Source: an uncultured Enterobacteriaceae bacterium (GTDB lineage: Bacteria; Myxococcota_A; UBA9042). From it: a stretch of 64,000 nt of DNA. Below the pieces are notes generated by a model. That model made no database searches. It was not told the DNA's origin and was given only the letters and a program-made list of their open reading frames with translations. Positions 8,640 through 45,723 of the stretch are shown here, piece after piece. The stretch covers positions 6,536 through 70,535 of the forward strand of contig CAYHHL010000006.1 of assembly GCA_964356325.1 (NCBI GenBank), written 5' to 3'. Position 1 is the first letter of the stretch, and every line of letters starts with the position of its first letter. Made by a program: the position numbers and the translations under genes.

Positions 8640-8655
8640 CCTCTACCTCTCCACC

Positions 8656-18004: not shown

Positions 18005-18132
<128 letters not shown>

Positions 18133-28196: not shown

Positions 28197-28248
28197 CGAA
28201 GCTGCCCTCCTTTGCCCCGCCGAGCATAGGGTTGCGCCATTCGGGGTG

Positions 28249-28743: not shown

Positions 28744-28755
28744 CCGGCGCCGTCC

Positions 28756-30528: not shown

Positions 30529-31031
30529 GGGGCCAGCCGTCCGGACGCCGCGCCGGCCCGGTCCTCGATGGCGGCGACGGCGCGGCGGCTGTCGAGGCGG
30601 ACGTAGGTCTCGCCGTCTACGGTCATCACTGGCGCCAAGCTGCAACAGCCTAGGCACGCGACGGTTTTCAAGGTGAACGCCAGGTCTGACGTAGTGCCGC
30701 CCGGTGCGATGTCGAGGCGCTGCGCGACGGCTTCGGCAATGCGGCGCGCGCCGCTCACGTGGCAGGCCGTGCCCTTGCACACGCGCACCAGCACACGGCC
30801 GCGGCGCTCCAGCGAGAAACTGTCGTAGAACGTCGCCACGCCGTAGATGCGCGCCAGCGGGATGCCGGTGCGCTCGGCCAGCGCTCGCAACATCGCGCCC
30901 GGCATGTGCCCGAACTGCTTCTGCGTTTCCTGGAGCAGCGCCACTACATCGCCACCGTGGCGGGCAACGATCGCATCCAGCCACGCGCCGTGCGCTTCAG
31001 GGTCGATGGTAGCGGGTTCGGACGCGGCCAA
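30525..31031 (-). CDS. NuoE-like thioredoxin-fold [2Fe-2S] protein (24-kDa subunit homolog)
   Basis: GVATFYDSF ... CKGTACHVSG ... CLGCCSLAPVM is the NuoE cluster-binding pattern. A TTG start at 31029-31031 is preceded by AAGGAGG with a 5-nt spacer. Confidence 0.7.
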   Translation of the reverse strand: MAASEPATIDPEAHGAWLDAIVARHGGDVVALLQETQKQFGHMPGAMLRALAERTGIPLARIYGVATFYDSFSLERRGRVLVRVCKGTACHVSGARRIAEAVAQRLDIAPGGTTSDLAFTLKTVACLGCCSLAPVMTVDGETYVRLDSRRAVAAIEDRAGAASGRLAP

Positions 31032-31208
31032 GGCGGCCTCCTTGCAGCGGCGCGCCCTGATGACGCGATCGCTGCCGGGCCACACCGTAGGCTTGCCCCG
31101 GCTGGAGATCAAGGCAATGCAGCAGGATGCCAAGCGCCTGAGGTATCTGCAGCGGAAGGCAACGCCAACGTGGTCCCGCCCGCCGCGCTCTGCTACCCTC
31201 GGTCGGCG

Positions 31209-32444
31209 ATGCAACCACCAGACAACATGACTCCACTTCCATCACGACATGCCCGGGTTTCGGCGCGTTCGAAGGCGGCCCTCGCCGTGGCGGCACTGAC
31301 TTTGGCATGCGCGGCCGAACCGCTGGCACCGGGCGAAGCCAACCTGGGGCCCATCGAACACGTCGTCGACGCCAAGGCGCGCGCGGTCTGGCCCGGGCTG
31401 ACGCGCGACGACGGCAGCAGATATATTCGCCACATCAATGGATTTTTCGACGGCACGCCCACTGGTTGCTGGTTCTTCGGCCTGTCCTCGCGCGCGACGG
31501 CCGATGTCTTCGTGTTCTGCCGCGCCGGCGACAAAATGTGCCCGTTCGACGCCCAAGGCCGCGCGCAATGGTCGCACATGGCAGGCGATCCGGTGTTTGC
31601 GCGCATGCCCGGCGAGACCGGCTACTCGCCCTACTGGCTGGTGTGGGTGGTCACGGTGCCTGCAGACTACCGGGCGGGCGACCTCAAGTCGGTGGAAGGC
31701 ATCAACAAGGCCAAGGCAGCCGGCCGCGTCCAGGTCGATCAGCTCGTCTTCGACCACGGCGGCACGGTCGGCCCCGGCGTAGCGGTCATGCATTGCGCCC
31801 TGGTCCTGGCGGGCACGACGTTGGAGCGCGCGGGCGGCGATGTCGTCGGCCAGCCGGGCGTCGCGATCCGACCGATCGAGGACCGCTTGGGTTGGCACAA
31901 GCAGTATCGCGTCCACTTCTATGACTTCACCGCCAGCGAAGGGGTCGGGCCCGCCGATGCGTCCAGCCAGTCCCGGCCCATGATGATCGTCAGCGATCTC
32001 TTCGTGATCCAACGCGATTGTGCCGGTGGTTCAGCCTCGCCCTTGTGTACTGCCGGCATCGGGCGCGCTCCAGTCGGCGAACGCGACGTCGATATCGATT
32101 TCACCCACGACGGCGATAAGTTCGACACCAACTACGTGTTGATGGCGAACCCGTTCAAGGCGCCGGCCGACCCCGCGGACGCTGGCCGCGCCTACTCGCC
32201 CTTATGGCGGGTGAGCACGGTGCTGGTGCGACCCGCCCACGACGCCGAAGTGCCGCTCATCGACACCACCGGCAACCAAAGCCAATCGAGCATCAAGTCC
32301 GTGGCAGACCTGCGCGCGGCCATCGCCAAGGGAATCGCCGGCGAGCCCGAAGCCATGACCGAGGCGGCAACCGGCGCCATCCCCGGCAACGATGGCCATG
32401 CTTACTTCAGTTGCCCGTCGCAGGTGCCGTGGAACGCGCCCTGA
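31209..32444 (+). CDS. Lipoprotein of unknown function (paralog A)
   Basis: MQPPDNMTPLPSRHARVSARSKAALAVAALTLACAAEP has a lipobox (LTLAC). It is ~55% identical to the next gene over its body. It ends ...FSCPSQVPWNAP. Confidence 0.55.
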   Translation: MQPPDNMTPLPSRHARVSARSKAALAVAALTLACAAEPLAPGEANLGPIEHVVDAKARAVWPGLTRDDGSRYIRHINGFFDGTPTGCWFFGLSSRATADVFVFCRAGDKMCPFDAQGRAQWSHMAGDPVFARMPGETGYSPYWLVWVVTVPADYRAGDLKSVEGINKAKAAGRVQVDQLVFDHGGTVGPGVAVMHCALVLAGTTLERAGGDVVGQPGVAIRPIEDRLGWHKQYRVHFYDFTASEGVGPADASSQSRPMMIVSDLFVIQRDCAGGSASPLCTAGIGRAPVGERDVDIDFTHDGDKFDTNYVLMANPFKAPADPADAGRAYSPLWRVSTVLVRPAHDAEVPLIDTTGNQSQSSIKSVADLRAAIAKGIAGEPEAMTEAATGAIPGNDGHAYFSCPSQVPWNAP

Positions 32445-32570
32445 AGCTTTGACCACGACCCGGTGTGGTATGGGCTACGCAGATGGTGTAGGTTGGCAGC
32501 ACACTGCGGAACGGCCGTTTCGCAGCGCGTGCCGGGGCCTGCTCATGTGCGGCCAGACGGGAGGTATGCG

Positions 32571-33794
32571 ATGTGCGGAGCCCTTGCGCGACAGCGCCGG
32601 CACGCGAACCTGCTGAGCGTCGCGATGACCGCGCTGCTGCTTGCCGCTGCCTGCACCGCTGATCCAGAGCCGAGTGCCGAAGCCGACCTCGGCCCCATCG
32701 AGAACAGCCTCGACGACAACGCCTTGTCGGTGTTTCCCGGCCTCAAGCGGGATGACGGTAGCCATTACATCCGTCAGATCAATGGCTATTTCAACGGCCA
32801 AGAGACCGGCTACTGGTTCTTCGGCTTCGCCTCGCGCGCCACTGCCGACGTGTTCGTGTTTTGCCGGGAGGGCGACAAGGTCTGCCCGTTCGACCAGAAG
32901 GGCCACGCGCAATGGTCGCACATGGTCGGCGATCCGGTGTTCGCGCGCGTGCCGGGCCAGACCGGCTTCTCGCCATTCTGGCTGGTGTGGCAGGTCACGG
33001 TGCCGGCCAGCTACCAGGCCAACGACATCAAGTCGGTCGCTGGCGTGCACGCGGCCGTCGCTGCGGGGCGCGTCAAAATGGACCTGCACTTGCACGATCA
33101 CGGCGGCGCAATAGGCCGCGGCCAAACGATCATGCACTGCGCCCACGTGCTCGCCGACACGACGCTGGAACGGGCGGGCGAGGACATCGTCGGCAGGCCC
33201 GGCGTGAAGAACCTCGTCATCGAGCGCCGCCGCGGCTGGCACAAGCAGTACCGCATCCACCTGTTCGACTTCACCTCCAGCGAGGGCGTCACCGCGCCCG
33301 ACCCGAACAGCCAGTCGCGGCCGCTGATGCGCACGTCGGACATCTACGTCCTGTTTCGCGACTGCAACGGCGGTTCGAAATCGACCGCGTGCGGCCTGGT
33401 CAACACGTTGGCTGGTTCCGTCAGCGAGCGCGGCACCGAGACGGATCTGACCAACGACGCCGACAAGCGCGACACCAACAACGTGCTGGTCTCCTTCCCC
33501 GGCCAACTGCCCGTGGACCCCATCGATGCCGAGCGCGTGTACTCGCCGCTGTGGCGCGTCAACAAGGTGGTCGTCAAGGCCGCGTACGACAAGAACGTTC
33601 AACTGCTTGATGATACGCACGATCAGACGAAATCCAGCGTCAAGTCCGTGGCCGACATCCGAGCGCTGGTGACCCAGGGCTACGTCAAGCCGATCGAGTT
33701 CGTCGACGAAGGCATGACCGGCACGGCCATTCTCGGCAACGACGGCTTGACCTTCTTTTCCTGCCCATCCCAGGTGCCTTTCGATGCGCCTTGA
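32571..33794 (+). CDS. Lipoprotein of unknown function (paralog B, tandem duplicate of 31209..32444)
   Basis: GGGAGG-N6-ATG precedes MCGALARQRRHANLLSVAMTALLLAAAC (lipobox). The body is collinear with paralog A (DDGSxYIRxINGxFxGxxTGxWFFGxxSRATADVFVFCRxGDKxCPFD...). It ends FFSCPSQVPFDAP. Confidence 0.6.
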   Translation: MCGALARQRRHANLLSVAMTALLLAAACTADPEPSAEADLGPIENSLDDNALSVFPGLKRDDGSHYIRQINGYFNGQETGYWFFGFASRATADVFVFCREGDKVCPFDQKGHAQWSHMVGDPVFARVPGQTGFSPFWLVWQVTVPASYQANDIKSVAGVHAAVAAGRVKMDLHLHDHGGAIGRGQTIMHCAHVLADTTLERAGEDIVGRPGVKNLVIERRRGWHKQYRIHLFDFTSSEGVTAPDPNSQSRPLMRTSDIYVLFRDCNGGSKSTACGLVNTLAGSVSERGTETDLTNDADKRDTNNVLVSFPGQLPVDPIDAERVYSPLWRVNKVVVKAAYDKNVQLLDDTHDQTKSSVKSVADIRALVTQGYVKPIEFVDEGMTGTAILGNDGLTFFSCPSQVPFDAP

Positions 33795-34302
33795 CCGTTT
33801 TCGTCGCCATGTCGCGCTCGGCGCCTGGGCGCTGGCTACTGGCTGTTTGCTGACAAGCTGCGAGCCGGCCCCGGACATCGAGCCCTCGGCTTGCCGCAAT
33901 CCGGTGCCCGCGGTGGCTGAATTGGGCACGGGCGATCTCAACACCGGCTTCAAGCCGATGGCCGACGGCGCCGACGCGCTGGTCACGCTGGGGCCGCAAG
34001 GGCTGCACATGATCCTGGTGAGCGTCAAGCTGACCGGGTTCGAGGCGCCACCGGCGGGCGGCGGACGCAGTCAGCTCTGGCTCTCCGTGCGCAGCCAGGA
34101 CACGTTCCTGGGCGCGATTCCTGCGACGGAAAAGCCGGTCGTGCTGGACGACAAGACCGTGGCGTTCCTGGGCTTGCGGCCGGCGATGACGTTGGACAAT
34201 GTCAGCGCGTATTTCGGCAAGCTCTCCGAGGTCGAAGTGACGATCCGCGACGGCTGCGATCGGCTGATCCATGCCAAGCGCATGGTCCGACTGGTGCAAT
34301 GA
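33784..34302 (+). CDS. Small lipoprotein, hypothetical
   Basis: MRLDRFRRHVALGAWALATGCLLTSCEPAP has a lipobox (LTSC). Its start overlaps the previous stop. Confidence 0.5.
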   Translation: MRLDRFRRHVALGAWALATGCLLTSCEPAPDIEPSACRNPVPAVAELGTGDLNTGFKPMADGADALVTLGPQGLHMILVSVKLTGFEAPPAGGGRSQLWLSVRSQDTFLGAIPATEKPVVLDDKTVAFLGLRPAMTLDNVSAYFGKLSEVEVTIRDGCDRLIHAKRMVRLVQ

Positions 34303-35234
34303 CGCTGACTGCGGTGCTGCGCTGCGTCGCGCTGATCACCGTGACATGGGCATGCCGGTCGCCCGAGCCCACCAAGCCGTTGCCCGCGCCTGCGACACAA
34401 GCCCTGGAGATGGCTCGTGATCAGTGGTTCTTTGCCGCGCAAACCCCTGAACCTGTGCTGCTGGCGCTCATCCTCCAACGCACGCGCGACCGCGAGGCGA
34501 CCGCTACCACCCTGGAAGCCAAGGCGTTCCTGGTGGCGCGCGATCGCCTGCAGTCGCTGTTCTGGGAACGGGTGGAACTCGATCGCTGGCCCGGCGAGGA
34601 CCTGGCGACGGTCTTGACCGCGTGGCAGAAGCAGCGCAAGGGACCGGGGTTGCGGCTTGCGTTTGCCACCGAACCTGCCGGGCTGACCCTGACCGTGCGC
34701 CAGCCGGCTGGCGGCTTCACCCTGACCGCCACGGACTTGCAACCTATCGGTACGACCAACGATCCGCACGGCGAGAGCCAGCTTCGCGCCGGCACCGGTC
34801 AACTCGAGGTCAACGGCGTGAAGTGGCAGGGCCAGGTCCTCGCCGAGCACCTGGAGCCGGGCAGCCGGGCGTGGCCGAGCTTTGGCCGATTCGAGATGTG
34901 GCTCGCGGCCCCGACCGAGGGCGGCCTCGTGCTCGGTCGTTGCGATCTGCGCGCGCCGCCGCCCTGTGGCGAGGCGGTGGTGCTGTCGCCGGGCCAGCCA
35001 CCGCTCCGTCAGGGTTTCGCGGTCCAACCGTTCGATGCGCAACGCGACGTGACGACGGGATTTTTGCTGCCAAGGCGCTGGCGGCTGGAACCGATGGCCG
35101 GTGGCGAAGTCGTCTGGCGCGACGGGCAGACGGGGCGCGGTCGGGCACCGGGCGGGTCGCAGGCTGTTTACGATATCGGCGTCGCGAGCGGTCCAGGCGC
35201 GCTGGCGCTGGTCTTTCACTTGCAGGATCAATGA
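34299..35234 (+). CDS. Secreted protein or lipoprotein, hypothetical
   Basis: MTLTAVLRCVALITVTWACRSPEPT is a signal peptide. It overlaps the previous gene by ATGA. Confidence 0.5.
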   Translation: MTLTAVLRCVALITVTWACRSPEPTKPLPAPATQALEMARDQWFFAAQTPEPVLLALILQRTRDREATATTLEAKAFLVARDRLQSLFWERVELDRWPGEDLATVLTAWQKQRKGPGLRLAFATEPAGLTLTVRQPAGGFTLTATDLQPIGTTNDPHGESQLRAGTGQLEVNGVKWQGQVLAEHLEPGSRAWPSFGRFEMWLAAPTEGGLVLGRCDLRAPPPCGEAVVLSPGQPPLRQGFAVQPFDAQRDVTTGFLLPRRWRLEPMAGGEVVWRDGQTGRGRAPGGSQAVYDIGVASGPGALALVFHLQDQ

Positions 35235-36100
35235 GGTTCCGCGACAGGTAGATACGGTGCCGGAGTCGCCGTCGGTTCGCGCCACGTCGGTCGCTCGCTG
35301 AAGTAGAATCCCAAGCCGCGCGGGCGGCCGAGCGACAATACGTAGGCTACCAACGCCCAGCGATCCGCCTCGTCGGGCAGCGATTGGTCAAAGGCTGGCA
35401 TAGGCGCGCCGTCCAGGCCGGTCATGAAGGTGCGGTAGACGTCGATCGGGCCGTTGCCGCCCTTGTAGACGCCGTAAGTGAAGTCGAACACGTGGCTGAC
35501 GCTGCCATCGCTGTTGCGCGCCGTCGCCGCGGCCTTGCCATCGCCTCGGCCCTCGCTGCCATGGCACTCGCCGCAGCCCATCTTGACGTACAGCTTGGCG
35601 CCGCGCGCGATCAGGTCCGGCGTCGCGGCGACTGGGCTGATGTCTGCGGGCAGGACTACGTCTTCAGGCTGACGCGGCTCGGCGGCAAAGCGCGGCGACA
35701 GGGTTTCGAGGTAAAGTACAAGCGATGTCAGCTGATTGGGCGTGAGCTGATCGCGCCAACCGGGCATCGCGCTGCCGGGCAGGCCGAGCGCCAGCGTGCG
35801 TTCTAGGTCAGCGCGCGTCGGCAAGGTGCCGCTGGCGGTCGAGCGGAACCGGTACTCGCCGCGGGTCAAGTCGCGCGGTGGCGGCATCAAGCCCTCGCTG
35901 GCAGCACCCATGCCGTCGCCGCGCGCGCCGTGGCAGCCGGTGCAAGTCGCCAGGAACAGGCGGCGGCCCTCGGCGAGATCCGGCGGCGTGTCGGGACCGA
36001 CCGGATCGATGCGCGCCACGCCGCCAGCGCCGCACGCGACGGTCAGTGCGGTGGCCAGGAGCGCGAGCCCGAAGCGCCAGCCGTGGCTACAAAAAGCCAT
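35228..36100 (-). CDS. Dihaem c-type cytochrome lipoprotein
   Basis: MAFCSHGWRFGLALLATALTVACGAG is a signal peptide with a lipobox. CTGCHG and CGECHG are the haem motifs. The ATG is at 36098-36100. The track ORF is over-extended by 64 aa. Confidence 0.75.
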   Translation of the reverse strand: MAFCSHGWRFGLALLATALTVACGAGGVARIDPVGPDTPPDLAEGRRLFLATCTGCHGARGDGMGAASEGLMPPPRDLTRGEYRFRSTASGTLPTRADLERTLALGLPGSAMPGWRDQLTPNQLTSLVLYLETLSPRFAAEPRQPEDVVLPADISPVAATPDLIARGAKLYVKMGCGECHGSEGRGDGKAAATARNSDGSVSHVFDFTYGVYKGGNGPIDVYRTFMTGLDGAPMPAFDQSLPDEADRWALVAYVLSLGRPRGLGFYFSERPTWREPTATPAPYLPVAEPH

Positions 36101-37187
36101 GAATTTGCAGCAAGATCTCATTGGCATTGCCGTTGACCCGTTGGGGAATGTCGCGGTTGATGCGGTAGACTGCGCGCAGTTCGCTCCACTGCACCGGAAA
36201 CCATCCGAGGCCGAGAACGAACCGATCGCGCTCGTTTTCCTTGATCTCCAGCGACGGATCGAAGGACTCGAACCGGCCGCGCAGGTGCACACCCTTGTAC
36301 GCCTCGAAGTCGGCCTCCGTGAACAGCGCGACCTGGTCGTAGTCGTTCGGCGGCCCCATGCCGCGGATCCAATCCAGCGAGCCGAGCATCACCAGCCGAC
36401 CCAGGCGCAGTCCGCCATGCACGCCAGAAGTCAGCGTCTTGAAGGGAAAATCCTGAGCCGAAGTATCGTTGAAGGCCAGCGACGCCGACAGCCGGCCCCA
36501 CGGCGCGACGACGCCCACTTGCGCAGTCAACTGCTTGGCGAGGTTGGTATCGGGCCCGCCCAGACTGCCGTTGCTCACCGCCACCGAGGCCATGAACGGG
36601 TGCGGCGCGATGCCGACCTCCACGCCGAGATCTTGATTCGCATAGGTAAAACCTGTCTGTTGGCGGATGAACGCGGTGTCGTCCTGAACGCGCAGTCCGT
36701 ACGGTAGCAGGAAGTGACCAGCCTTGACGTAGCCACCCAGCGGCAGGCCTTGCAGCAGGACGAACGCCTCGCGATTGGCCGCGCCCTCCGGAGCCACCGT
36801 TTCGTCGACGTAGAAGCTCAGGCGCTGCGGCACGATTTCGGCGCGCACGTAGAGGTTAGCCTCGCTCACCTCGAACGAATTGGACGCCTTGGCCTGGTAG
36901 CGTTTGCCGTCCAGGCTGGTATGCGCCGCCAGCACGCTGCGTTGGTCCAGGCGCAGGTTGGCGCCCAGCGTCACCGATTCGCCGAGGCGCGGATCGAAGA
37001 CGCCGGGGGCGCGAAAGGTAGGCAGGTGGCTCTGGGCCCAGGCGACTCCGAAGGGCGTGCGCATGCCGCCGCCCGTGCGGTTGACGTGGCAGGCGCTGCA
37101 GGCAAGTCCCTCGCGCACGGCAAAAGCCGGTTCAGCGCGCAGGCTTGGCGCGGCGCTCAGGCCGTAGACCAGCAGGGTGGCGACGAC
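36087..37187 (-). CDS. Secreted beta-rich protein with a single N-terminal CxxCH (possible porin-like haem protein)
   Basis: ...VTAARVGFAVVATLLVYGLSAAPSLRAEPAFAVREGLACSACHVNRTGGG is followed by ~330 aa of alternating, aromatic-rich beta-type sequence. The start is uncertain. The track ORF begins in repeat-encoded SRSRSR. Confidence 0.45.
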   Translation of the reverse strand, partial: VVATLLVYGLSAAPSLRAEPAFAVREGLACSACHVNRTGGGMRTPFGVAWAQSHLPTFRAPGVFDPRLGESVTLGANLRLDQRSVLAAHTSLDGKRYQAKASNSFEVSEANLYVRAEIVPQRLSFYVDETVAPEGAANREAFVLLQGLPLGGYVKAGHFLLPYGLRVQDDTAFIRQQTGFTYANQDLGVEVGIAPHPFMASVAVSNGSLGGPDTNLAKQLTAQVGVVAPWGRLSASLAFNDTSAQDFPFKTLTSGVHGGLRLGRLVMLGSLDWIRGMGPPNDYDQVALFTEADFEAYKGVHLRGRFESFDPSLEIKENERDRFVLGLGWFPVQWSELRAVYRINRDIPQRVNGNANEILLQIHGFL

Positions 37188-37210
37188 CGCGAATCCGACG
37201 CGCGCTGCGG

Positions 37211-37720
37211 TCACTTTGCCCCCTCGTCTGCGCTGGCGTCGGCTCCGGCTCCGGCTCCGGCTCCGGGCAGCAAAGTCGCGCCCGCGTCGGCGGCATCGGC
37301 GTGCCAGTCCTTGCTCGCGCCCTCGGCGATCCATTTGCGCAGGGCACCGATCTGCGCATTGGTCAGGAACGGCGGCCCGTTGCGAGGCATGCGCGCGCCG
37401 ACACGACGCGGGTCCATGGCCGCGATCTTGACGATGAGGTAGCTGTCCTCGGGCCGACCGGGCGCCACACGCTGCATCGACGGCACCTCGGCCGCGGCCA
37501 CACCGACCAGATTCTGCAGTGCCACCGCATTGTCCAGCGACAGACCTTTGGGCGATGCACCGCCATGGTGGCACGACTGCGCGCACATCGGCTCCAGGAT
37601 CTGGGCCTGGATTTCCGGCCATGTGCGCGGCGCGACTCCGCCCGACTCCGGCGGCGCCGGCACGCCCTCGCCTGAACCGACACAGGCCGCGCACAGCCAC
37701 GTCAGCAGGAGCACTTGCAT
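37211..37720 (-). CDS. PSCyt1-like ('planctomycete cytochrome c' domain) haem lipoprotein
   Basis: MQVLLLTWLCAACVGSG has a lipobox. CAQSCHHGGASPKGLSLD ... VAPGRPEDSYLIVKIAAMDPRRVGARMPRNGPPFLTNAQIGALRKWIAEGA matches the PSCyt1 pattern. The C-terminal GAGAGAGADASADEGAK tail is encoded by the GCCGGA/GGCTCC repeat. Confidence 0.65.
   Translation of the reverse strand: MQVLLLTWLCAACVGSGEGVPAPPESGGVAPRTWPEIQAQILEPMCAQSCHHGGASPKGLSLDNAVALQNLVGVAAAEVPSMQRVAPGRPEDSYLIVKIAAMDPRRVGARMPRNGPPFLTNAQIGALRKWIAEGASKDWHADAADAGATLLPGAGAGAGADASADEGAK
37241..37267. repeat. Second short (GGCTCC)4.5 hexanucleotide run, reverse complement of the 18005 microsatellite unit
   Basis: Seen directly in the sequence, inside the 3' end of the PSCyt1 gene. 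Confidence 0.8.
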
Positions 37721-37781
37721 CGGGCCGCCTCCCTGCGACAATCGCCTACGCAGCGACTGGCTGCTCCTCGAGGTCGCCGTC

Positions 37782-38003
37782 ATGCACAGATTCCGCCTGG
37801 CAGCGCTCGCCGCGATCCTCAGCGTGGCGACCTCGCTGGGTGGTTGCGCGGCGGTCCAACCGTGGCAGCGCGGCCGTCTCAGCCAACCGGCGATGCAACT
37901 CAGCCCACGCCTGGGCGCGGAATTCCAGTCGCACCTGCGCCCCGTGCGCGAGGGCGCCATCGGCGGCGAGGGCGGGGCCGGCGGCGGCTGCGGCTGCAAC
38001 TGA
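37782..38003 (+). CDS. DUF4266-family small lipoprotein
   Basis: MHRFRLAALAAILSVATSLGGCAAVQPWQRGRLSQPAMQLSPRLGAEFQSHLRPVREGAIGGEGGAGGGCGCN. It has a lipobox, and the characteristic GGGCGCN C-terminus recalled for this family. Confidence 0.65.
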   Translation: MHRFRLAALAAILSVATSLGGCAAVQPWQRGRLSQPAMQLSPRLGAEFQSHLRPVREGAIGGEGGAGGGCGCN

Positions 38004-38023
38004 CGGTCGTGCAAGGGCATCGC

Positions 38024-39148
38024 TTACAAGTCCACGGAGACGGCGGCCTGTAGCACGGTCGCGATCGTGTCGGCCATGGGCACGAAGCGGTCCCCGTCCA
38101 CGGTGCGGAAGTCATCGTAACGCGTCCAGATCAGCATGCCCTGCGCCAGCAATTCGACGACACGCCACTTCCAGCGCAAGTTGAGGTCAACCGCATTGGA
38201 CCATTGGCCGGTCAGGCGCCTATCGCGGGTGATGTAGGCGCGGTCCACAGTGTACATCGAGCGGTAGAAGCTGGCTCGCGACTGCCAGTACAGCCGATTG
38301 GCGAGTTCGATTTCCAAGCCGTGGCCGACATCGAGGGTGGCGCCGAGTTCACCGGTGTTGCTGCGAATCGCCCAAGTATCGAGATAGCCGCGGTAAGTCG
38401 CGCGCAAGAACAGCGACCGACCGACGGCTTGGCGGCCTTCGAGCGTCAAACCGTGGCGGGTGCGGCTGTCCGGGTGGCGCTCGGCGACCCACTGCGCCTG
38501 ACTGTGCAGCCAAAGCGCGGGGTCACGCGGCACCAGCGGCACCAGGCGGTAGGGGCTCGATTGGAACCCGTCGACCAGCGCGAGCGTATATGCCACTGAA
38601 ACTATAGTGGAACGCGTGACGATTTGGCTGACCGTGGCGTCGAGACGGTGGCTCAGGCGGTCATGCCACAGCGACTCGGGCTGGCGCAGGCTGCCCAGGC
38701 GGTCCATGCCCAGACCATAGCTGAGCGCCAGTGTTAGGTTGCGCGCGAACAGCTCGGTCTGGCCGCCGGCCACCAAGGCGTGGCTGTGCGTGTCGTTCTC
38801 GGTGCTGTAGGTGTAGCCGGTATGGCCACGCCAGCCGTCGCGGTCGTAGTTGAGTTGGAAGCCCGCCTCCTTGCGCACCTCTTGGAAGCTCGGGCTGGCG
38901 CCGGAAACCATGTCGACCGATGCCGCGGTGATGAAGTCGGTGCGCACCGTGGCCTGGACGGAAGTGGATCCGAGGATCTGCTGGCGCGCCTCGAGCCACG
39001 GGCTGATGACGCTCAAGCCATCGTTATTGCTGTACACCGCCGTCCCGGTCGCTCCGTGCGTGGCCAGGCCTTCACCGTGTGCGCTGCCCGACAACGCCGA
39101 CCAGACGGCACAGCCTGCGAAAGCGGCCCGCCCGCCCCACCGGCTCAC
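38024..39148 (-). CDS. DUF3570-like outer-membrane beta-barrel candidate
   Basis: A GTG at 39146-39148 overlaps the upstream stop (GTGA). A signal-like AAFAGCAVWSALSGSAHG is followed by aromatic-rich, alternating beta sequence. The family assignment comes from pattern recall only. Confidence 0.5.
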   Translation of the reverse strand: MSRWGGRAAFAGCAVWSALSGSAHGEGLATHGATGTAVYSNNDGLSVISPWLEARQQILGSTSVQATVRTDFITAASVDMVSGASPSFQEVRKEAGFQLNYDRDGWRGHTGYTYSTENDTHSHALVAGGQTELFARNLTLALSYGLGMDRLGSLRQPESLWHDRLSHRLDATVSQIVTRSTIVSVAYTLALVDGFQSSPYRLVPLVPRDPALWLHSQAQWVAERHPDSRTRHGLTLEGRQAVGRSLFLRATYRGYLDTWAIRSNTGELGATLDVGHGLEIELANRLYWQSRASFYRSMYTVDRAYITRDRRLTGQWSNAVDLNLRWKWRVVELLAQGMLIWTRYDDFRTVDGDRFVPMADTIATVLQAAVSVDL

Positions 39149-39693
39149 TTCAGTCCCCCGGAGATCCAACCTTCCAGGGCCTTGTACGCCGGTTGGCTGC
39201 GGTCCGGGAACACGATCAAGCCATCGGCGTGGACGATGCCGCCCTGCTTGGGATCCAGGCATTTGAGCAGCAAAGCACTGTTCGCGGCCGACGTCTCGTT
39301 ACGCAAGCGCATGCACAAAGCTTCGTAGTTCCAAGACAACTCAGCATCGGTCAGGTGCTTCTCGTCGAGCGGCGTGTCCGAAAAGGCCGGAGGCGCGCGC
39401 AGGTAATCGACGGCGTACAGCGTCAGGCTGCTGCCGAGCTTGCCGTGGCAGGCGGCAAAGGCGCAACTGTGGCCGATCACAGGCTGGATCTTGGTCACGA
39501 ACACGCTGAAGTCGGCAACGGGCAATGGCGTGTACGGATTATCGACTGACGGGCAGGCAGTGGCAGTCACGGCGAGCCCGGTCAAGATCACGAAAAGCGC
39601 AGCTTGGCGACCGACTTGCGGCCACGGCGCGTCCCGCCGCTCAGTTGTCTGGGCGCATGGGGGACGCTGGACTTTCGGGTCGGTGGCACGCAT
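39145..39693 (-). CDS. Monohaem c-type lipoprotein with a PSCyt1-like C-terminus
   Basis: ALFVILTGLAVTATACPSVD has a lipobox. CAFAACHG is the haem motif. ...AYKALEGWISGGLK is the C-terminus. The true start is probably an internal GTG near 39615. Confidence 0.55.
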   Translation of the reverse strand: MRATDPKVQRPPCAQTTERRDAPWPQVGRQAALFVILTGLAVTATACPSVDNPYTPLPVADFSVFVTKIQPVIGHSCAFAACHGKLGSSLTLYAVDYLRAPPAFSDTPLDEKHLTDAELSWNYEALCMRLRNETSAANSALLLKCLDPKQGGIVHADGLIVFPDRSQPAYKALEGWISGGLK

Positions 39694-39740
39694 GGGCAGC
39701 CGTGGCGGCGTGGTGGTGGCGCCGCGTTGGTGAGGGTGGC

Positions 39741-42146
39741 ATGCTTCGGCGCGCGGCAGCGCCCTTTGCGGGGCTTCTCATTGCTGGTTTCGCGGGGCTT
39801 CTCATGGCTCGTGTCCCCGTCCCCTCCGGTTGCCGGCACCCTGGCGTCGACGTCGTGCGATGCTACGAGAAGCGGTGCGGCCGTGCAATCGCGCGCCTGG
39901 CGCTGCTGACCCTGCTCGCCGTGGCGGCTCTTGCCTGCGAGACGACGCCGACCGCCGCGGCGCGGGGCCCGACTGAAGGCTGCAACACTTCAAAATGCCA
40001 CGCAGAAATCGAGCAGATCCACTACGGTGGCCCGGCTCTGAGCTGCGTCGACTGTCACGGCGGCGATCCGCGGGCGACGACCAAGGCCGGTGCGCACGTC
40101 ACGGTGGACACGTCGTTGAACCCCTCGACGCCGGGCAAGCATTTCCTCGACGATCCCTCGCTGGCCGAACTCGCGCAGGCTTCGACCGAGGTGCTGCAGT
40201 TCCTCAACCCAGCGGATTATCGAGTTGTTTTAAGGACATGTGGCAGCACCACGCTGGCGGGCGGCGGTTGTCACTCGATCATCACGAACAACAGCCTGCT
40301 GCTCAACCGGGCGACGCTGGCAGGGCAATTGGCAGGCGGTGGCTTCATCGCCGGAACTCAGGGCAAGCAGCCGCACTATGGCATCGTGCCCGTGCAGGAT
40401 CGCTTCGTGCCCGCACAGCCGCCGCCGGGTACCGTCACCCACTTGGACCCGCTTCCGGCCGACCCACCCGCCACGGCGACCTCGGTGACTGCCAAGGCAT
40501 TCTACCCTGTCTACGAGCAGTTGTGCGCCGATTGCCACCTCGGGCGTGAGGGTTCCAAGGTGCCAGGGCGCTACTACTCGGCGGGCTGCAACGGCTGCCA
40601 CATGACCACCGCGGACGAGTCGCGCACGGCGACGGCCGACCCGACGCAGAACCGCGACGAGGCCGGTCACCCGCTCAAGCACCGATTCACCAACCTCATT
40701 CCCGACAGCCAGTGCGCGCATTGCCACATTTCGCACCTGGGCCGATCGCTGCTGGCACGCGGTGTGCGCGAGCGCTCCGAGCCCGAGGGCGACACGCTGA
40801 TGGGCGGCAAGAACACGGGTGCCGCCGATCCGCCCAACGCCGTGCCGTGGGGCAAGGAGAACTACGTCAAGTCCAAGGGCATGTTGTGGCAATACGGCAA
40901 GCCGTGGCCGTACTTCCTGGAGGATGAGGACGGCAGCAACGCCACGGACGAGACGCCACCCGACATCCACACGCAAATGGGCTTGGCCTGCATCGATTGC
41001 CACAACATGCGGGAAGCCCACGGTTCAGGCCGGGCCCAGGTGCGCATGGACCAGGAACTCGACGTGCGTTGCCAAAGTTGCCACGGCCGGCCGGGAGAGA
41101 AAGCCAAGCTGATGTCCGACTCGGGCATCACTTTTGACCAGGCGGGGACGGGCAAGGGCTCGGACGGCGCCAACCCGCAGACGGTCAAGGTCATCGGCGA
41201 TGGGAGCGTGCAGCAGCGCGACAAGCTGACCGGTGGACTGCATCCGGTCACGCAGATCACGCAACGTACTGATCCGAATGCCAAGCTGTACAATCCGCGC
41301 ACGCGCATGGGCTGCCAACTCCACGCGGGGACGGCGGCGGCGCGTCAGGCTCTCAAGGCCGAGTTCGCCGCGCTGGCTGCCCAGGATCCGGCGGCGGCGC
41401 AGAAGCAGTTTCCGGGCGTGCCGCCGGGCTTCCAGTTCGACGCCGTGGCTGTGGAGTCCGACGGCCGCACCGAATGCTTTGCCTGCCACAATGCCTGGAC
41501 GGTCAACTGCTACGGTTGCCACATGGTGCGCGACGACCGCGAGACCTACATCAGCCGGGTAAGCGGCGAGAAGCGGGTGGGCAAGGTCAAGTCCTTTGGT
41601 CTCAGCGTGATGGCCGACGCTCTCGCGCTGGGCTTCAACAGCCGAGGCCGTATCACGCCGCTGGTCGGGACCTCGATCTTCTTCACCCACATCGACGCTG
41701 CCGGCAACAAGGTCATCGATGCCGCGCCGTTGACCACGGGCGAAGGCCTGAGCGGCGACGGTAACGTTCACAACCCTGTGCACCATCACACGATTCAGAA
41801 GCAGCCTCGCGATTGCACCGGCTGCCATCCAGCGGCGGATGGCGCCGACAACGTGACGGCGGTACTGCGCGCGATCGGCTTGGGCACCGGCCAGTTCACG
41901 TTCGCCGATGGTGCTGGGCGGACCCACTGGCTCGACAGGCTGATCGTCGGTGACTACGATGGCGACGGCAAGCCGGACGACCCCATCGCGCTCGGGTTGC
42001 CCTCGTCGCTGGCGAGCGTGAAGCGCGTGGTCGGCACGACGCACATGCAGCTACCAGGCATGTCCGGAGGCCAACAGCCGGGACCGCTCGACGTCGAAAC
42101 AGTCAATCGCATCCTGAAGAACAAAGTGTTGCCGCAGCGGCCCTGA
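39741..42146 (+). CDS. Large multihaem c-type cytochrome lipoprotein (~11 CxxCH/CxnCH)
   Basis: There are two candidate signal peptides. One is MLRRAAAPFAGLLIAGFAGLLMA. The other is RLALLTLLAVAALACETTP, which carries a lipobox. The haem motifs are CNTSKCH, CVDCH, C(x9)CH, CADCH, CNGCH, CAHCH, CIDCH, CQSCH, CFACH, CYGCH and CTGCH. The start is uncertain (39741 to 39870). Confidence 0.75.
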   Translation: MLRRAAAPFAGLLIAGFAGLLMARVPVPSGCRHPGVDVVRCYEKRCGRAIARLALLTLLAVAALACETTPTAAARGPTEGCNTSKCHAEIEQIHYGGPALSCVDCHGGDPRATTKAGAHVTVDTSLNPSTPGKHFLDDPSLAELAQASTEVLQFLNPADYRVVLRTCGSTTLAGGGCHSIITNNSLLLNRATLAGQLAGGGFIAGTQGKQPHYGIVPVQDRFVPAQPPPGTVTHLDPLPADPPATATSVTAKAFYPVYEQLCADCHLGREGSKVPGRYYSAGCNGCHMTTADESRTATADPTQNRDEAGHPLKHRFTNLIPDSQCAHCHISHLGRSLLARGVRERSEPEGDTLMGGKNTGAADPPNAVPWGKENYVKSKGMLWQYGKPWPYFLEDEDGSNATDETPPDIHTQMGLACIDCHNMREAHGSGRAQVRMDQELDVRCQSCHGRPGEKAKLMSDSGITFDQAGTGKGSDGANPQTVKVIGDGSVQQRDKLTGGLHPVTQITQRTDPNAKLYNPRTRMGCQLHAGTAAARQALKAEFAALAAQDPAAAQKQFPGVPPGFQFDAVAVESDGRTECFACHNAWTVNCYGCHMVRDDRETYISRVSGEKRVGKVKSFGLSVMADALALGFNSRGRITPLVGTSIFFTHIDAAGNKVIDAAPLTTGEGLSGDGNVHNPVHHHTIQKQPRDCTGCHPAADGADNVTAVLRAIGLGTGQFTFADGAGRTHWLDRLIVGDYDGDGKPDDPIALGLPSSLASVKRVVGTTHMQLPGMSGGQQPGPLDVETVNRILKNKVLPQRP

Positions 42147-42164: not shown

Positions 42165-42995
42165 ATGAAACGCTTGCTGCAATGCCTGGCGCTGACCTGG
42201 GGTCTGGCGGGCTGCGAGTCCAATCCGGAGCCGAGCGAGCCGGCGATCCAGGTCGAGACGCTGCCGGAGATGGCCGGCGCACCTACCAGCGTGGTCGATG
42301 GCCGTCTGACTTGCCTGGGCAAGGCCCCGGCGGCGGCCACTGCGGGCGCGCTGGAATTGACTGGCTACGTACGCACGCTGGCCGATCCCGAAGCGAAACT
42401 ACCGCCACCCGCGGCCAAGGTCGGCCTGTTCACCGCTGACGGCACGGAACTGGCCAGCGGTTTTGCCGACGCGGCCAAGGCCGGCCGTGTCTCGATCTCG
42501 GTGCCGGTCAAGGCTCAAGGCTTCGAAGGCTACGCGCTCGTGCAGCAACAAGGCTTCCTGGACTGGCGCTTCCAGACCAGCCGGCCGGTGACGACTACCG
42601 ACCTCACCGGCTGGGCTTGGCTGACCACACAGGGCGAGGTCGACACGCGAGCCAAGGCGCTGGGTTTCACGCTCAAGGCCAGCGCCGGCATCCTGGTCGG
42701 CGCCGTCCATGATTGTGACAGCTTCGGCGCGGCCAACGCCGTGGTCGTCGTCGGCGATGCGGGCGGCAACCCCGTGTATTACGTCGAAGGCTTCGATCTA
42801 GTGGCGGTACGTCCCTACACCAGCACCAGTGGCCGCTTCGTCGCTGCCAACCTCGCGCCGGGCACCGTGCAGGTCAAGGCGTTCGGGCGTACCAAAGTGG
42901 GCGGCCCGCTGGAACTCTTGTCCTCGGCGCGGGTCGTGATCGAGGCAGGCCGCATCACCGCCGTCGATCTCGCGCCGCGCACAGGCATCAAGTGA
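42165..42995 (+). CDS. Lipoprotein, hypothetical
   Basis: MKRLLQCLALTWGLAGCESNPEP has a lipobox. It lies 18 nt after the cytochrome stop. Confidence 0.55.
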   Translation: MKRLLQCLALTWGLAGCESNPEPSEPAIQVETLPEMAGAPTSVVDGRLTCLGKAPAAATAGALELTGYVRTLADPEAKLPPPAAKVGLFTADGTELASGFADAAKAGRVSISVPVKAQGFEGYALVQQQGFLDWRFQTSRPVTTTDLTGWAWLTTQGEVDTRAKALGFTLKASAGILVGAVHDCDSFGAANAVVVVGDAGGNPVYYVEGFDLVAVRPYTSTSGRFVAANLAPGTVQVKAFGRTKVGGPLELLSSARVVIEAGRITAVDLAPRTGIK

Positions 42996-44275
42996 CGCCT
43001 GGCTCAGATGCGAGGCGCTGGCACGCCGCGCCTCCGTTGGCCGCCGGTCTGTCTGCGCTGGCCATCTGCGCTGCGGGCTTCGACATCACACCTGACATGC
43101 CCGCTACGAACCTGTTCCCTTTGCTGTATTATCCGCTGCTGGTGCTGAGTCTCGGCACCGCCTGGTGGGTCTGGCGCCATCCGCGCTGCATCGGTTTTGC
43201 CACGGTGTTGGCGTTTGCCCTGGCGTTCCGTCTGCTTGCTGCCGCGGAACCGCCCTCGCTGTCGAGCGATGTCTACCGCTACGCCTGGGACGGCCACGTG
43301 CAGCGCGCCGGCATCAGCCCTTACGCCCACGCCCCTGGCGATGCCGCGTTGGCGCCGTTGCGCGATGCCGCGATCTACCCGCACATCAACCGCAAACAGG
43401 CGCACACGGTCTATCCGCCGGGCGCGCAGGTGCTGTTCCTGGCGCTGCCCTTTGGCCTGGACGCGGTCCGCCTGGCGATGATCGCCTTGGATCTGCTGAC
43501 GATCGTGCTGCTCGGCCGGCTCTTGCGCGATCTGGGCCAGGATCCGGCGCGCGCGCTGCTTTACGCCTGGTCGCCGCTCGCGATCTACGAAATCGGCAAC
43601 GGCGGCCATCTCGAGGCGGCGGTGCTGCCGTTGCTGCTGGGCGCGGTGCTGGCGTGGCGTGCAGGGCGCTGGCGGACGGTCGGGCTGCTGCTCGGCGGCG
43701 CGGCCTCGCTCAAACTGTATCCGCTGTTGCTCGGCAGTGTTCTGGCGCCGCCACGCTGGTTGCGCGTGCTCGGCCCGGCCGCGGTATTGCTGGGTGTCGT
43801 GTACTTCGCCTATGGCCTCGCGGCGGGCGTGGGCGTGCTGGGCTTCCTGCCGCAGTACCTCGGATCGGCTGAGGATCACAACAACGGACTGCGCGCGCTG
43901 TTCGAGTGGACCCTCGGCCCGCTGCCGGCGCAGTACCGGCGCCCGTTGGCGTTTGCCCTGTGCCTGGTCGCGATGGTGACCCTGATGCGCAAGGCGGCGC
44001 GCGCTGATGTGGCCATCGAACACAAGATTCGCGACCTTGCGGGCATCTACTTGGTGACGGTACCCACGGCGCTGCACCCCTGGTACGCGCTCTGGCTCGT
44101 GCCGTGGCTGTGCATCGCGCCGCACGCCGGGTGGCTGTGGCTGGTGGCGACCGTGCCGCTCTCGTACCTCAAATACGCCAGCCCCGGCGGGGTGATGCCG
44201 GCGTGGGTGATGCCGCTGGAGTTCGTGCCGACCGGAGTGCTGCTGGCGTGGCCGATGTGGCGGCGGCCGGCATGA
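42992..44275 (+). CDS. DUF2029/GT87-like polytopic membrane glycosyltransferase (polyprenol-phosphate-sugar dependent, GT-C-like)
   Basis: It has about 10 TM segments. SSDVYRYAWDGHV is the DUF2029-type periplasmic loop motif. The start overlaps the previous stop (ATGA). Confidence 0.65.
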   Translation: MTPGSDARRWHAAPPLAAGLSALAICAAGFDITPDMPATNLFPLLYYPLLVLSLGTAWWVWRHPRCIGFATVLAFALAFRLLAAAEPPSLSSDVYRYAWDGHVQRAGISPYAHAPGDAALAPLRDAAIYPHINRKQAHTVYPPGAQVLFLALPFGLDAVRLAMIALDLLTIVLLGRLLRDLGQDPARALLYAWSPLAIYEIGNGGHLEAAVLPLLLGAVLAWRAGRWRTVGLLLGGAASLKLYPLLLGSVLAPPRWLRVLGPAAVLLGVVYFAYGLAAGVGVLGFLPQYLGSAEDHNNGLRALFEWTLGPLPAQYRRPLAFALCLVAMVTLMRKAARADVAIEHKIRDLAGIYLVTVPTALHPWYALWLVPWLCIAPHAGWLWLVATVPLSYLKYASPGGVMPAWVMPLEFVPTGVLLAWPMWRRPA

Positions 44276-45723
44276 GCCTGTGGTCCGCCGTAGCCTTGCT
44301 GCCTTACCTCGGACTGCTAGCCGTGATGCTGGCTTACAGCGCCCACAGCCTGGTGCTGGTGATCGTCCACGCCCGCTCGCCGGCCCGCCGCCGAGAGTCG
44401 TGGCCATCGCCAGGAACCGAGCCGCACGTCGTTGTGCAATTGCCAGTGTACAATGAGGAAAATGTCGTCGCGCGGCTCCTGGATGCCGTTGCCGCTTTGG
44501 ATTGGCCACCCGACCGGCTGACCATCCAACTGCTCGACGACTCGACCGATGCCACCGCCGCGCTGGCCGAGCCGTGCGTCGCGCGGATGCAAGAGGCGGG
44601 TCTGCGCGTCCAACACCTGCGGCGGGCCCAGCGGCACGGCTTCAAGGCCGGCGCGCTGGCGCATGGCTTGGCGCAAACCGACGCCGCGTTCTTCGCCATC
44701 TTTGACGCCGACTTCGTACCGCCGCCCGACTTCTTGCGCCGCGCGCTGCCGCACTTCGCCGACCCGAGCATCGCCGCGGTCCAGGGCCGCTGGACGCATC
44801 TGAACCGCGACTGGTCGAGCCTGACGCGCGCTCAGGCCCTGGCCATCGACGGTCATTTCGCCATCGAGCAGGAGGCCCGCTTTCGCGCCGGCTGGTTCCT
44901 CAACTTCAACGGCAGCGCGGGGGTATGGCGGCGCGCGGCGATCGAGGCGGCCGGCGGCTGGTCGGCGGACACCTTGACCGAGGATCTGGACCTTTCCTAC
45001 CGCGCGCAGCTGTGCGGTTGGCGCCTCGCGTTCGATCGCGATCTCACATGCCCCGCCGAATTACCGAGTACTCTGGCTGCCTTCAAGGCTCAGCAACGGC
45101 GCTGGGCAACCGGGTCGATGCAGACGGCGCGCAAGCTCCTGCCGGCGATCTGGCAGAGCCGAACGAGCCTGGCCGCGCGACTGGCGGCGACGCTGCACCT
45201 GACGCACTACGCCGTGCACCCATTGCTGGCGACGACCGCGCTGCTGTCGATTCCGTGCGTTCTGCTGCCAGGGCTGTTGGCGCCCCCGGGGCCTCTGTGG
45301 GGTGTGCTGCTGCCGTTCGGCCTGGCGATGGTCGGGCCCACAGCGCTGTATCTGTACGCGCGCCGGGTGCTCGGGTTGCCGATCGCGCCGGCGCTGCGCG
45401 ATCTCGGCACGCTGACCCTGGTGGGCGTGGGCATCGCCGTCAGCAATGGTCGCGCGGTGTTGCGCGCCTTCCAGCGGCGGCAGATCCCATTCGAGCGAAC
45501 GCCCAAGCTGGGAGAGCCAGGCGACTGCATCCGCCAGCGCTATCCGGTGACCGCGGACGGCCTCGCGCGCATGGAGCTGGCCCTGGCGCTGTATTGCCTG
45601 TGCGCCGCGCTGGGACTGCTGTGGACTGGGGTGTATGCGGTGGCGCCCTTCCTGCTTCTGGACGCCGCCGGGTTCGGCTATGTAGCGGTGCGCGGCGCTG
45701 CAAGTGACCAGGAGCGTTGGTGA
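44272..45723 (+). CDS. Family-2 membrane glycosyltransferase (processive, cellulose-synthase-like fold)
   Basis: VVQLPVYNEENVV ... LLDDSTD ... FDADFVPPPDF ... QQRRWATG is a QxxRW motif. C-terminal TM helices follow. ATGA overlap with the previous gene. Confidence 0.8.
   Translation: MSLWSAVALLPYLGLLAVMLAYSAHSLVLVIVHARSPARRRESWPSPGTEPHVVVQLPVYNEENVVARLLDAVAALDWPPDRLTIQLLDDSTDATAALAEPCVARMQEAGLRVQHLRRAQRHGFKAGALAHGLAQTDAAFFAIFDADFVPPPDFLRRALPHFADPSIAAVQGRWTHLNRDWSSLTRAQALAIDGHFAIEQEARFRAGWFLNFNGSAGVWRRAAIEAAGGWSADTLTEDLDLSYRAQLCGWRLAFDRDLTCPAELPSTLAAFKAQQRRWATGSMQTARKLLPAIWQSRTSLAARLAATLHLTHYAVHPLLATTALLSIPCVLLPGLLAPPGPLWGVLLPFGLAMVGPTALYLYARRVLGLPIAPALRDLGTLTLVGVGIAVSNGRAVLRAFQRRQIPFERTPKLGEPGDCIRQRYPVTADGLARMELALALYCLCAALGLLWTGVYAVAPFLLLDAAGFGYVAVRGAASDQERW

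Follow-up and report, generated by a model that had tools for sequence, protein, structure and literature searches.

A predicted haem-carrying porin with cytochrome partners in an uncultured myxococcotal genome: a probable sister family of Cyc2 next to two further redox modules

The 64,000-nucleotide stretch of DNA analysed here (the window; GenBank assembly GCA_964356325.1, contig CAYHHL010000006.1, positions 6,536 to 70,535) comes from an uncultured bacterium that GTDB places in Myxococcota_A, and it carries a cluster of genes for haem proteins, designated A to F, which are the subject of this work. Three groups of genes lie side by side: the operon C-B-A (module 1), the pair E-D together with a small gene of the DUF4266 family (module 2), and gene F (module 3; Table 1). 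The gene map was built from frame-specific G+C content at third codon positions (GC3), start-codon context and metagenome gene calls; overall G+C content across the window was 66-72%. Exact copies of the window genes are present on two metagenome contigs in ENA (ERZ4201064 and ERZ4201063), and the closest relatives in genome collections were uncultured Myxococcales metagenome-assembled genomes (MAGs), the nearest of which encodes a B protein of 84% identity. Gene coordinates given in an earlier note on this DNA (the original prediction) agreed with the map and with the calls on the metagenome contigs, except for the start of B. No in-frame start exists at 37187, and the GTG at 37214 is preceded by the ribosome-binding site GAGGGGG. 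The 22-nt gap formerly placed between C and B is in fact a GTGA overlap, while the GTGA overlap of E and D and the 14-nt overlap of B and A were found as described. A scan for promoters and terminators yielded nothing informative.

Signal peptides or lipoboxes, judged by eye only, were seen in A, B, C, D, E, F, G and the DUF4266 protein, as had been claimed, and every product of the cluster is predicted to be extracytoplasmic. Together, proteins A to F contain 12 CxxCH motifs where 0.027 were expected from their own composition, so that the description as a dense haem cluster holds. Haem motifs are present in five of these proteins (A, B, C, E and F), not in six as originally counted.

Table 1. 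Genes of the haem protein cluster and of its immediate surroundings (positions within the window)
Gene	Product	Coordinates	Strand	Basis
A	dihaem c-type cytochrome lipoprotein, kustc0457-like, 290 aa	35228..36100	-	Pfam, PDB match
B	predicted fused monohaem cytochrome-porin, Cyc2-like, 375 aa	36087..37214	-	AlphaFold2, hhalign
C	small haem lipoprotein with CAQSCH, 169 aa	37211..37720	-	family alignment
DUF4266	small lipoprotein, 73 aa	37782..38003	+	Pfam; called on metagenome contigs too
D	DUF3570 protein with signal peptide, 374 aa	38024..39148	-	Pfam
E	lipoprotein with C-x4-CHG, 182 aa	39145..39693	-	12 homologues
F	multihaem lipoprotein, about 11 haems, 801 aa as called	39741..42146	+	haem-site alignment
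G	lipoprotein, 276 aa, weak CarboxypepD_reg-like match	42165..42995	+	
H	MptA_B/GT87-type GT-C glycosyltransferase, 427 aa	42992..44275	+	
GT2 genes, including I	GT2 glycosyltransferases	from about 44266; G-H-I trio ends at 45723	+	
U4, U3, U2, U1	about 400 aa each (U4, U3), 172 aa (U2), 311 aa (U1)	31200..35234	+	convergent with A

Protein B begins with a signal peptide recognised by inspection (MTAARVGFAVVATLLVYGLSAAPSLRA, followed by EP; cleavage at ...SLRA/EP), and the mature start AEP is kept among its homologues. It had no match in Pfam or NCBIfam. More than 380 homologues were found in the database, and a profile search recovered 2,727 clusters of 50% identity with E<=1e-3 (429 with E<=1e-30). 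Against plasmids, tblastn of B gave chance matches only. The CxxCH motif lies 10 residues past the cleavage site. In the form C39-S-A-C42-H43 it was invariant in all 114 aligned members and present in 116 of 120 matches, and the other invariant positions near it were E28, P29, N45 and G48-50. Further along, a strikingly conserved barrel segment includes Y135, D137, R148, E149, K164, D178, R184 and E199, and H372 is kept in 112/114 members. Met51 was considered as distal haem ligand and rejected, as M, K, G and A all occur at this position among family members.

The AlphaFold2 model of B was a confident barrel (pLDDT 91.3), which bears out the view of B as a secreted, beta-rich protein with its own CxxCH and a barrel fold. 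The model corresponds to a 16-strand OprP-type porin whose closest structural relatives are the anion-specific porins OprP and Omp32. From model and motif we infer that B is an outer-membrane-type porin which binds its own haem within the first approximately 45 mature residues. Because B would be a porin carrying its own haem, an electron path across the outer membrane is plausible. To this extent the proposal of trans-envelope electron transfer stands; a single Mtr-like conduit does not. The locus shares with MtrCAB/Pcc systems the general concept of cytochromes and an outer-membrane barrel that pass electrons across the envelope, but the B barrel has 16 strands and not about 20-26, and its haem is fused to the barrel whereas no decahaem protein is threaded through it. 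An MtrB-like role was thus rejected on fold, as that protein type forms a 26-strand sheath. Searches of region A-F against Pfam and NCBIfam gave no MtrA/DmsE-type decahaem or MtrC-domain match and no extracellular decahaem lipoprotein of the MtrC/OmcA type, in agreement with the earlier statement that none of these proteins matches MtrABC.

Comparison with Cyc2 was more informative. Cyc2, the fused cytochrome-porin iron oxidase of A. ferrooxidans and of Mariprofundus (Cyc2-PV1), is defined as an OprO/OprP-like porin of 16 strands that has a signal peptide and a single CXXCH, with the motifs AXPXFAR[Q/K][T/Y] before CXXCH and PXL four residues after it; its porin part is poorly conserved (Keffer et al. 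2021, PMC8406198). Clusters of Cyc2 are mutually only 17-20% identical. Six genuine Cyc2 sequences were fetched from replicons of Ralstonia, Methylocystis, Caballeronia, Ideonella, Polymorphobacter and A. ferrooxidans; they were recovered via a consensus peptide and then checked against the published motif. A typical N-terminus in this set reads AVPAFARQTGMACMACHVSFPELTPFGRFFK. B and the fetched proteins have in common the spacing A-x-P-x-F-A-xxx-G-xx-CxxCH...T-P-[FY]-G, which is identical up to CxxCH, while the loop before T-P-F-G is three residues longer in B. When the mature cytochrome parts of the B family and of the six Cyc2 proteins were aligned with hhalign, 53% identity was obtained over 30 columns (probability 89%, E 2e-6), compared with a probability of at most 12% for the controls (reversed Cyc2, C family and F family). 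The pattern A.P.[FLMY]A precedes CxxCH in 90 of the 114 B-family members.

Further likenesses concern architecture and gene neighbourhood. As in Cyc2, the mature protein that follows the signal peptide has its single CxxCH after about 10 residues and continues with the OprP/OprO-like 16-strand porin. With 375 aa, B passes the FeGenie length criterion for Cyc2 (>=365 aa). Every annotated Cyc2 gene that was fetched is followed by a c-type cytochrome gene; the rus operon has such a cyc2-cyc1 pair (PMC10654088), and B likewise adjoins a c-type cytochrome gene, the product of which has two Cytochrom_C domains or similar. A cupredoxin, known from the rus operon, is also found near some B relatives. 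B differs from Cyc2 in the following respects: (i) V-R-E stands for R[Q/K][T/Y]; (ii) PXL is replaced by CH-[VI]-N-x-T-G-G-G-x-R, three residues longer; (iii) an upstream partner, the CXnCH lipoprotein C, is obligatory for B; (iv) its dihaem partner is kustc0457-like whereas that of Cyc2 is the c4-type Cyc1; (v) the phyla are others (Myxococcota, Gemmatimonadota, Latescibacterota, KSB1 and more). As the architectural features agree while the two defining sequence motifs fail, the B family is called a sister family of Cyc2; it probably works like Cyc2 without being a canonical member, and would represent a distant, previously undelimited relative.

The partner genes of B were studied in 83 scored loci (80 loci of GTDB species representatives and three source-contig copies). 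A homologue of C lies directly upstream of B in 64/83 loci and a homologue of A adjoins C-B in 45/83; these are the only genes that travel together, so that the combination of lipoprotein cytochromes, barrel and large multihaem protein originally taken as a unit is not conserved as such. C-B and A are conserved together in six phyla, in the order C-B-A in Myxococcota and Planctomycetota and in the order A-C-B in Gemmatimonadota, Latescibacterota, KSB1 and Marinimicrobia.

C, translationally coupled to B via the GTGA overlap, is by its predicted features a divergent class-I or PSCyt1-like cytochrome c. Its haem motif in the window is CAQSCH (CX3CH). The Cys...Cys-His signature is always kept in the family at variable spacing (CX2CH in 22 members, CX3CH in 25, CX4CH in 14 and CX5CH in one). 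The rest of the domain is conserved among the homologues (L005-L083, about 300-900 nt ahead of position 10001) despite this drift, which provides, within one orthologous family, a natural series for studying how much variation cytochrome c maturation tolerates. Residues C46, C50, H51, M111, P112 and W130 do not vary, and M111 of the M111-P112 pair is the probable distal Met ligand. Among 52 family members, Pfam matches were to Cytochrome_CBB3 (nine), PSCyt1 (seven, E<=0.01) and Cytochrom_C (four). The window protein itself matched PSCyt1 (PF07635) only weakly, below the Pfam cutoff (E 0.043; 14.9 bits against a cutoff of 22), and a PDB sequence search with it found no match. Of the two PSCyt1-type lipoproteins originally proposed, C and E, the second had no match at all, and their motifs are CX3CH and CX4CH and not CxxCH.

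A is dihaem, as expected: it contains two CxxCH motifs and two domains each of Pfam Cytochrom_C (3.9e-23) and Cytochrome_CBB3 (7.8e-19). It matched PDB chain 6h5l_B, which we take to be the dihaem partner kustc0457, with E 3.1e-51 over 219 residues (A 43-261, chain 9-222). Both CxxCH motifs are conserved in both proteins and are aligned. A differs from that chain in being a lipoprotein and in being encoded beside a haem-porin and not beside an HAO-like octahaem enzyme. Entry 6H5L is the structure of the Kuenenia stuttgartiensis HAO, according to a preprint.

In six to eight Gemmatimonadota or unclassified loci A-C-B sits within a longer cluster. It comprises a sigma-54 two-component system, three CarboxypepD_reg-like proteins, another porin-like protein, a double cupredoxin that matches Copper-bind and SoxE (sulfocyanin), a CydA-like protein of 676 aa, two cytochromes c, and a dihaem cytochrome that carries a fused EB_dh haem-b domain. 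The extended cluster was seen in L095 (= L055; 548-18301) and also in L036, L047, L048, L053, L057, L072, L075 and L082. Several of these loci stem from a study whose marine Gemmatimonadota MAGs were independently reported to have FeGenie matches to sulfocyanin and Cyc2, the direction of iron metabolism being undecidable according to its authors (PMC11316326).

Module 2 belongs to a different system. D matched Pfam DUF3570 (PF12094) with 6e-32 and the small convergent open reading frame (ORF) matched DUF4266 (PF14086) with 6.3e-18, both above cutoff. The pair named in the original prediction is therefore present, the DUF4266 partner being a separate plus-strand lipoprotein gene, convergent with D and divergent from the C-B-A operon; the gene is conserved in 12 loci and in L090, and its product ends in GGGCGCN (CXC). 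DUF3570 proteins are flavinylated by ApbE at two [S/T]GA[S/T] motifs and are normally encoded together with ApbE, DUF4266 and a thioredoxin-like protein, in many cases also with DsbD (Méheust et al. 2021, PMC8238504). On this ground D is better placed in an ApbE-flavinylated, DsbD/thioredoxin-type system than as the barrel component of a conduit, that is, a cytochrome sheath. As to a barrel fold of D, a hydrophobic-moment script failed to separate known barrels from non-barrels, and a PDB sequence search with D found no match.

D resembles the published system in having an ApbE-type site beside a small lipoprotein with a C-terminal CXC, and it departs from it in several ways. Only one motif (VDMVSGAS) was present and no second one was found. 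The corresponding region reads SVD[MV][IV][ST][GA]A[ST] in 12 homologues, and the site degenerates to SAAT or TAAT in more distant ones. DUF4266 is encoded on the opposite strand. ApbE, thioredoxin-like and DsbD proteins were absent from the Pfam-scanned ORFs of the window and from the annotation within 10 kb on either side. Finally, D is translationally coupled to the haem-type lipoprotein E. The motif CAFAACH (CX4CH) of E belongs to a narrow Myxococcota family, in which CX4CHG is kept in 12/12 homologues; E had no Pfam or NCBIfam match. BLASTP of C against E gave no match, and hhalign of E against the C family produced a weak link (probability 42%, E 2.6e-4, 96 columns), which suggests that E is a remote, weak relative of C; it has GGI[RV]H where C has G-x-R-M-P. 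As C-B and E-D are both coupled in this way, the locus shows the arrangement of small haem lipoprotein, GTGA and secreted beta-rich protein twice. Module 2 thus looks like a cytochrome-associated variant of the DUF3570/DUF4266 flavinylation system, and the coupling of E and D may be an example of the flavin/cytochrome interchange discussed in PMC8238504.

The lipobox of F (...LAVAALAC) follows an alternative start at 39855. The estimate of about 11 haems was confirmed by 11 conserved haem-type sites, consisting of nine CxxCH, one CX4CH and an invariant C-x9-CH; the C-terminal part of the protein is beta-rich. The last-named site, C129-x9-C139-H140 (TCGSTTLAGGGCH; window 40239-40274, numbered from 39855), was invariant in 97 aligned F homologues. 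By analogy with MccA, which has a CX15CH haem site, it may be an unusual CX9CH haem-attachment site. Foldseek of F against PDB found no match and a PDB sequence search only weak ones to NrfB/NrfA; in fold, the only relative is the enzyme OTR, weakly alike. F matched ExtM (NCBIfam NF040943) with 142.7 bits and E 1.2e-41, far from the equivalog cutoff of 800, and is a distant homologue only. Relatives that share about 30% identity with F carry fused He_PIG, Big_9 or cadherin-like domains, and the fusion to such surface-type domains suggests a location at the cell surface.

ExtM is a 12-haem cytochrome encoded in the extHIJKLMNOPQS cluster of Geobacter sulfurreducens. This cluster, which is induced on Fe(III), also encodes ExtI, a porin like OprP, and a pair of Rieske protein and cytochrome b (Jahan et al. 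2018, PMC5877670). The inventory of that cluster is similar to that of the present locus, with an OprP-like porin, several multihaem or lipoprotein cytochromes and a cytochrome b complex nearby. ExtI, in contrast to B, is porin-like but not listed among the cytochromes of its cluster (PMC5877670), and no rhodanese, ExtKL selenoprotein or Rieske protein was found at the locus studied here.

With respect to the relation of the modules, D, E, DUF4266 and F accompany C-B-A only within Myxococcota, namely in 12 close Myxococcales loci and in L027, L090 and L091. In L090 and L091, the F proteins of which are 50-51% identical to that of the window, D, E and F (in L090 also DUF4266) are clustered in a changed order with U genes interposed; C-B-A is clear in L090, and L091 has two unannotated ORFs of matching size at the places of C and B. 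Their reclustering in a new order argues for selection on proximity within Myxococcota. Loci L017-L019 have C-B-A-G-H-I without F, and a distant relative of F has none of these neighbours. Because C-B-A occurs without D, E or F outside Myxococcota and without F in L017-L019, modules 2 and 3 are regarded as lineage-specific companions and not as parts of a universal machine.

The explanation favoured here (probability about 0.55) is that three extracytoplasmic redox modules lie side by side, the core of which, C-B-A, is a Cyc2-style single-haem outer-membrane conduit, with Fe(II) oxidation as the favoured function. A small soluble redox species, for which Fe2+ is the best candidate, would enter the pore of B and exchange one electron with the B haem. 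The electron would pass next to the periplasmic lipoprotein cytochromes C (monohaem, probably with His/Met ligation) and A (dihaem), and from there to a membrane complex linked to quinone or to an oxidase, such as the bc-type complex that is encoded in the window. In some Gemmatimonadota the sulfocyanin-like cupredoxin and the CydA-like protein would act as partners instead. E-D/DUF4266 and F would be Myxococcota additions, probably feeding or draining the same periplasmic electron pool. From the similarity to Cyc2, the pairing resembling cyc2-cyc1, and the sulfocyanin/CydA-like context in Gemmatimonadota, we infer the substrate and the inward direction of electron flow. The emphasis of the original prediction on Fe(III) or Mn(IV) reduction has support no greater than the opposite direction, arguably less.

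Several observations weigh against a Cyc2-like, iron-oxidising core: (i) FAR[Q/K][T/Y] and PXL occurred in 0/114 B-family members, and as both signature motifs are missing, the Cyc2 authors' own screen would exclude the family; (ii) profile comparison of the porin parts of B and Cyc2 revealed no sequence similarity, a lack that is also typical within Cyc2 itself; (iii) B is shorter than most Cyc2 proteins (>=400 aa); (iv) its barrel and long internal loop are strongly conserved, unlike those of Cyc2, which hints at a different, specific chemistry; (v) the variable residue 51 does not serve as distal haem ligand; (vi) some B homologues stand with C only, or alone amid housekeeping genes; (vii) the window yielded neither a terminal oxidase nor ccm genes; (viii) nothing marks the direction of electron flow, and the relatives of F (ExtM, fusions to surface domains) are tied to Fe(III)-reducing organisms; (ix) all genomes involved are uncultured MAGs. 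Given the missing Cyc2 motifs, the conserved pore loop and the ties of F to ExtM and OTR, outward transfer to metals or some other small-molecule chemistry may apply instead.

Outward transfer is the basis of an alternative that is considered unlikely, in which all parts form one integrated porin-cytochrome machine leading from the quinone pool via A, C and E to B and/or D and on to a surface-exposed F, with Fe(III), Mn(IV), electrodes or metalloid oxyanions as acceptors. The extracytoplasmic nature of all parts is consistent with such a machine, as are the lipobox of F, the surface domains fused to its distant relatives, and the kinship with ExtM, whose cluster of comparable make-up responds to Fe(III). 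It would also account for the persistence of C-B-A, E-D, DUF4266 and F as neighbours, though reordered, in L090 and L091. However, C-B-A manages without D, E and F outside Myxococcota and without F in L017-L019, the distant F relative lacks all these neighbours, B is not a sheath of the MtrB type, the region offers no match to an MtrA/DmsE-type decahaem protein or an MtrC domain, and the surface position of F is only putative.

The conserved loop leads to a second, equally tentative proposal. The B family may constitute a large unrecognised class of haem-porins (about 2,700 clusters of 50% identity in at least six phyla, all uncultured), always accompanied by a CXnCH lipoprotein (spacing 2-5), whose chemistry would be unlike that of Cyc2 in view of the acidic/basic constriction loop, the N-x-T-G-G-G haem pocket and the C-terminal His372 as possible distal ligand. 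E followed by DUF3570 would repeat this logic with cytochromes for ApbE flavins, and F, possibly catalytic, would join. As a second instance of a haem lipoprotein followed by a barrel, the E-DUF3570 pair would make DUF3570 proteins candidate barrels that can be wired by cytochromes instead of ApbE-attached flavins.

Rather improbable is the idea that B is a substrate-specific channel or enzyme, with the haem and the loop charges as catalytic or sensing site and with C and A as electron donors; peroxide, NO, sulfur or selenium oxyanions and Mn(II) would be candidate substrates. Such a function would explain the unusual conservation of barrel and loop, with Y135, D137, R148, E149, K164, D178 and R184 invariant where the Cyc2 porin is poorly conserved (PMC8406198), as well as the loss of the Cyc2 signatures and the likeness to the anion-specific porins. 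It would also fit the many non-iron contexts of B homologues, the homology of A to the partner of an HAO-like reductase, and the enzyme OTR as one structural relative of F. No neighbouring gene, however, points to a candidate substrate, the sulfocyanin and CydA-like context in Gemmatimonadota is nearer to respiratory iron-oxidation chains than to detoxification, and a single c-type haem would be an unusual catalytic centre for multi-electron chemistry. Least probable of all is that unrelated extracytoplasmic redox genes came to lie side by side by chance in a cytochrome-rich genome: the window does contain other multihaem genes of unrelated families (for an 8-haem cytochrome, 25195-27465, and an 11-haem NapC/MtrC-like protein, 52427-53836) and modules 2 and 3 are missing from most loci with module 1, but C-B-A synteny across six phyla, translational coupling and the regrouping of E-D/DUF4266/F and C-B-A in other orders in L090 and L091 speak against it.

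If the conduit reading of C-B-A is correct, it bears on metagenome interpretation, where Cyc2 is the main genetic marker for inferring microbial iron oxidation. The B family has the same architecture without the signature motifs and is abundant in phyla of soil, sediment and groundwater (Myxococcota, Gemmatimonadota, Latescibacterota). Either it adds to the organisms capable of electron exchange with iron, or it marks the limit of safe Cyc2-based inference. The three-gene cassette C-B-A is compact and open to expression testing. Beyond this core, the locus presents a DUF3570/DUF4266 system in which a cytochrome takes the position of ApbE, and in F an 11-haem protein whose CX9CH is invariant and which, apart from the weak likeness to OTR, has no relative of solved structure.

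Several genes around the cluster are of interest. The minus strand carries a putative operon (22862-31031) for a 2Fe-2S protein like NuoE, a NuoF-like protein (Complex1_51K), a 4Fe-4S ferredoxin, a CarboxypepD_reg/fn3_3 lipoprotein, a 757-aa membrane-anchored cytochrome c with 8 CxxCH (the 8-haem cytochrome mentioned above) and a cytochrome b split into an N-terminal and a petD-like C-terminal part; it showed no Rieske protein. Its gene content predicts a bc-type complex combined with a module on the NAD(H) side, at a distance of 4 kb from C-B-A. Next to C-B-A, the U genes are conserved in 8-13 loci of Myxococcota; in L090 and L091 they are placed between it and E-D. U4 and U3 are paralogous lipoproteins, 59% identical, and their weak similarity to DUF7482 (2e-4) was the sole Pfam match among the U genes.

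Downstream of F, on the plus strand (42165-46412), the gene for lipoprotein G precedes those for an MptA_B/GT87-type GT-C glycosyltransferase and two GT2 enzymes. G-H-I follows F in the window, in L005-L013 and in L090, and directly follows A in L017-L019. It resembles a periplasmic glycosylation system, which might glycosylate the cytochromes or the surrounding envelope. Further downstream, a 469-aa NapC/NirT-family protein with a region like MtrC domains II/IV, 11 CxxCH and one CSGSCH (52427-53836, plus strand) is followed, up to 56748 on the same strand, by a HAMP/HisKA_3 histidine kinase and a LuxR-type response regulator.

Menaquinone biosynthesis genes occupy 2752-13570, coding for a MenD-like thiamine pyrophosphate enzyme, a MenF-like isochorismate synthase, a UbiE/MenG methyltransferase, a fused MenC-MenE and MenB, with a polyprenyl synthase and a DAHP synthase alongside. 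A stretch of approximately 3.7 kb (17860-21610) contains no long ORF that passes the GC3 coding filter or matches Pfam; its longest ORF (19960-21609, minus strand) has 549 aa and is unannotated. At the far end of the window (58560-63998, minus strand), two very large Cys-rich proteins with Dicty_CTDC repeats and MopE-like metal-binding motifs are encoded, one of which has an arylsulfotransferase-like propeller while the second runs off the window end.

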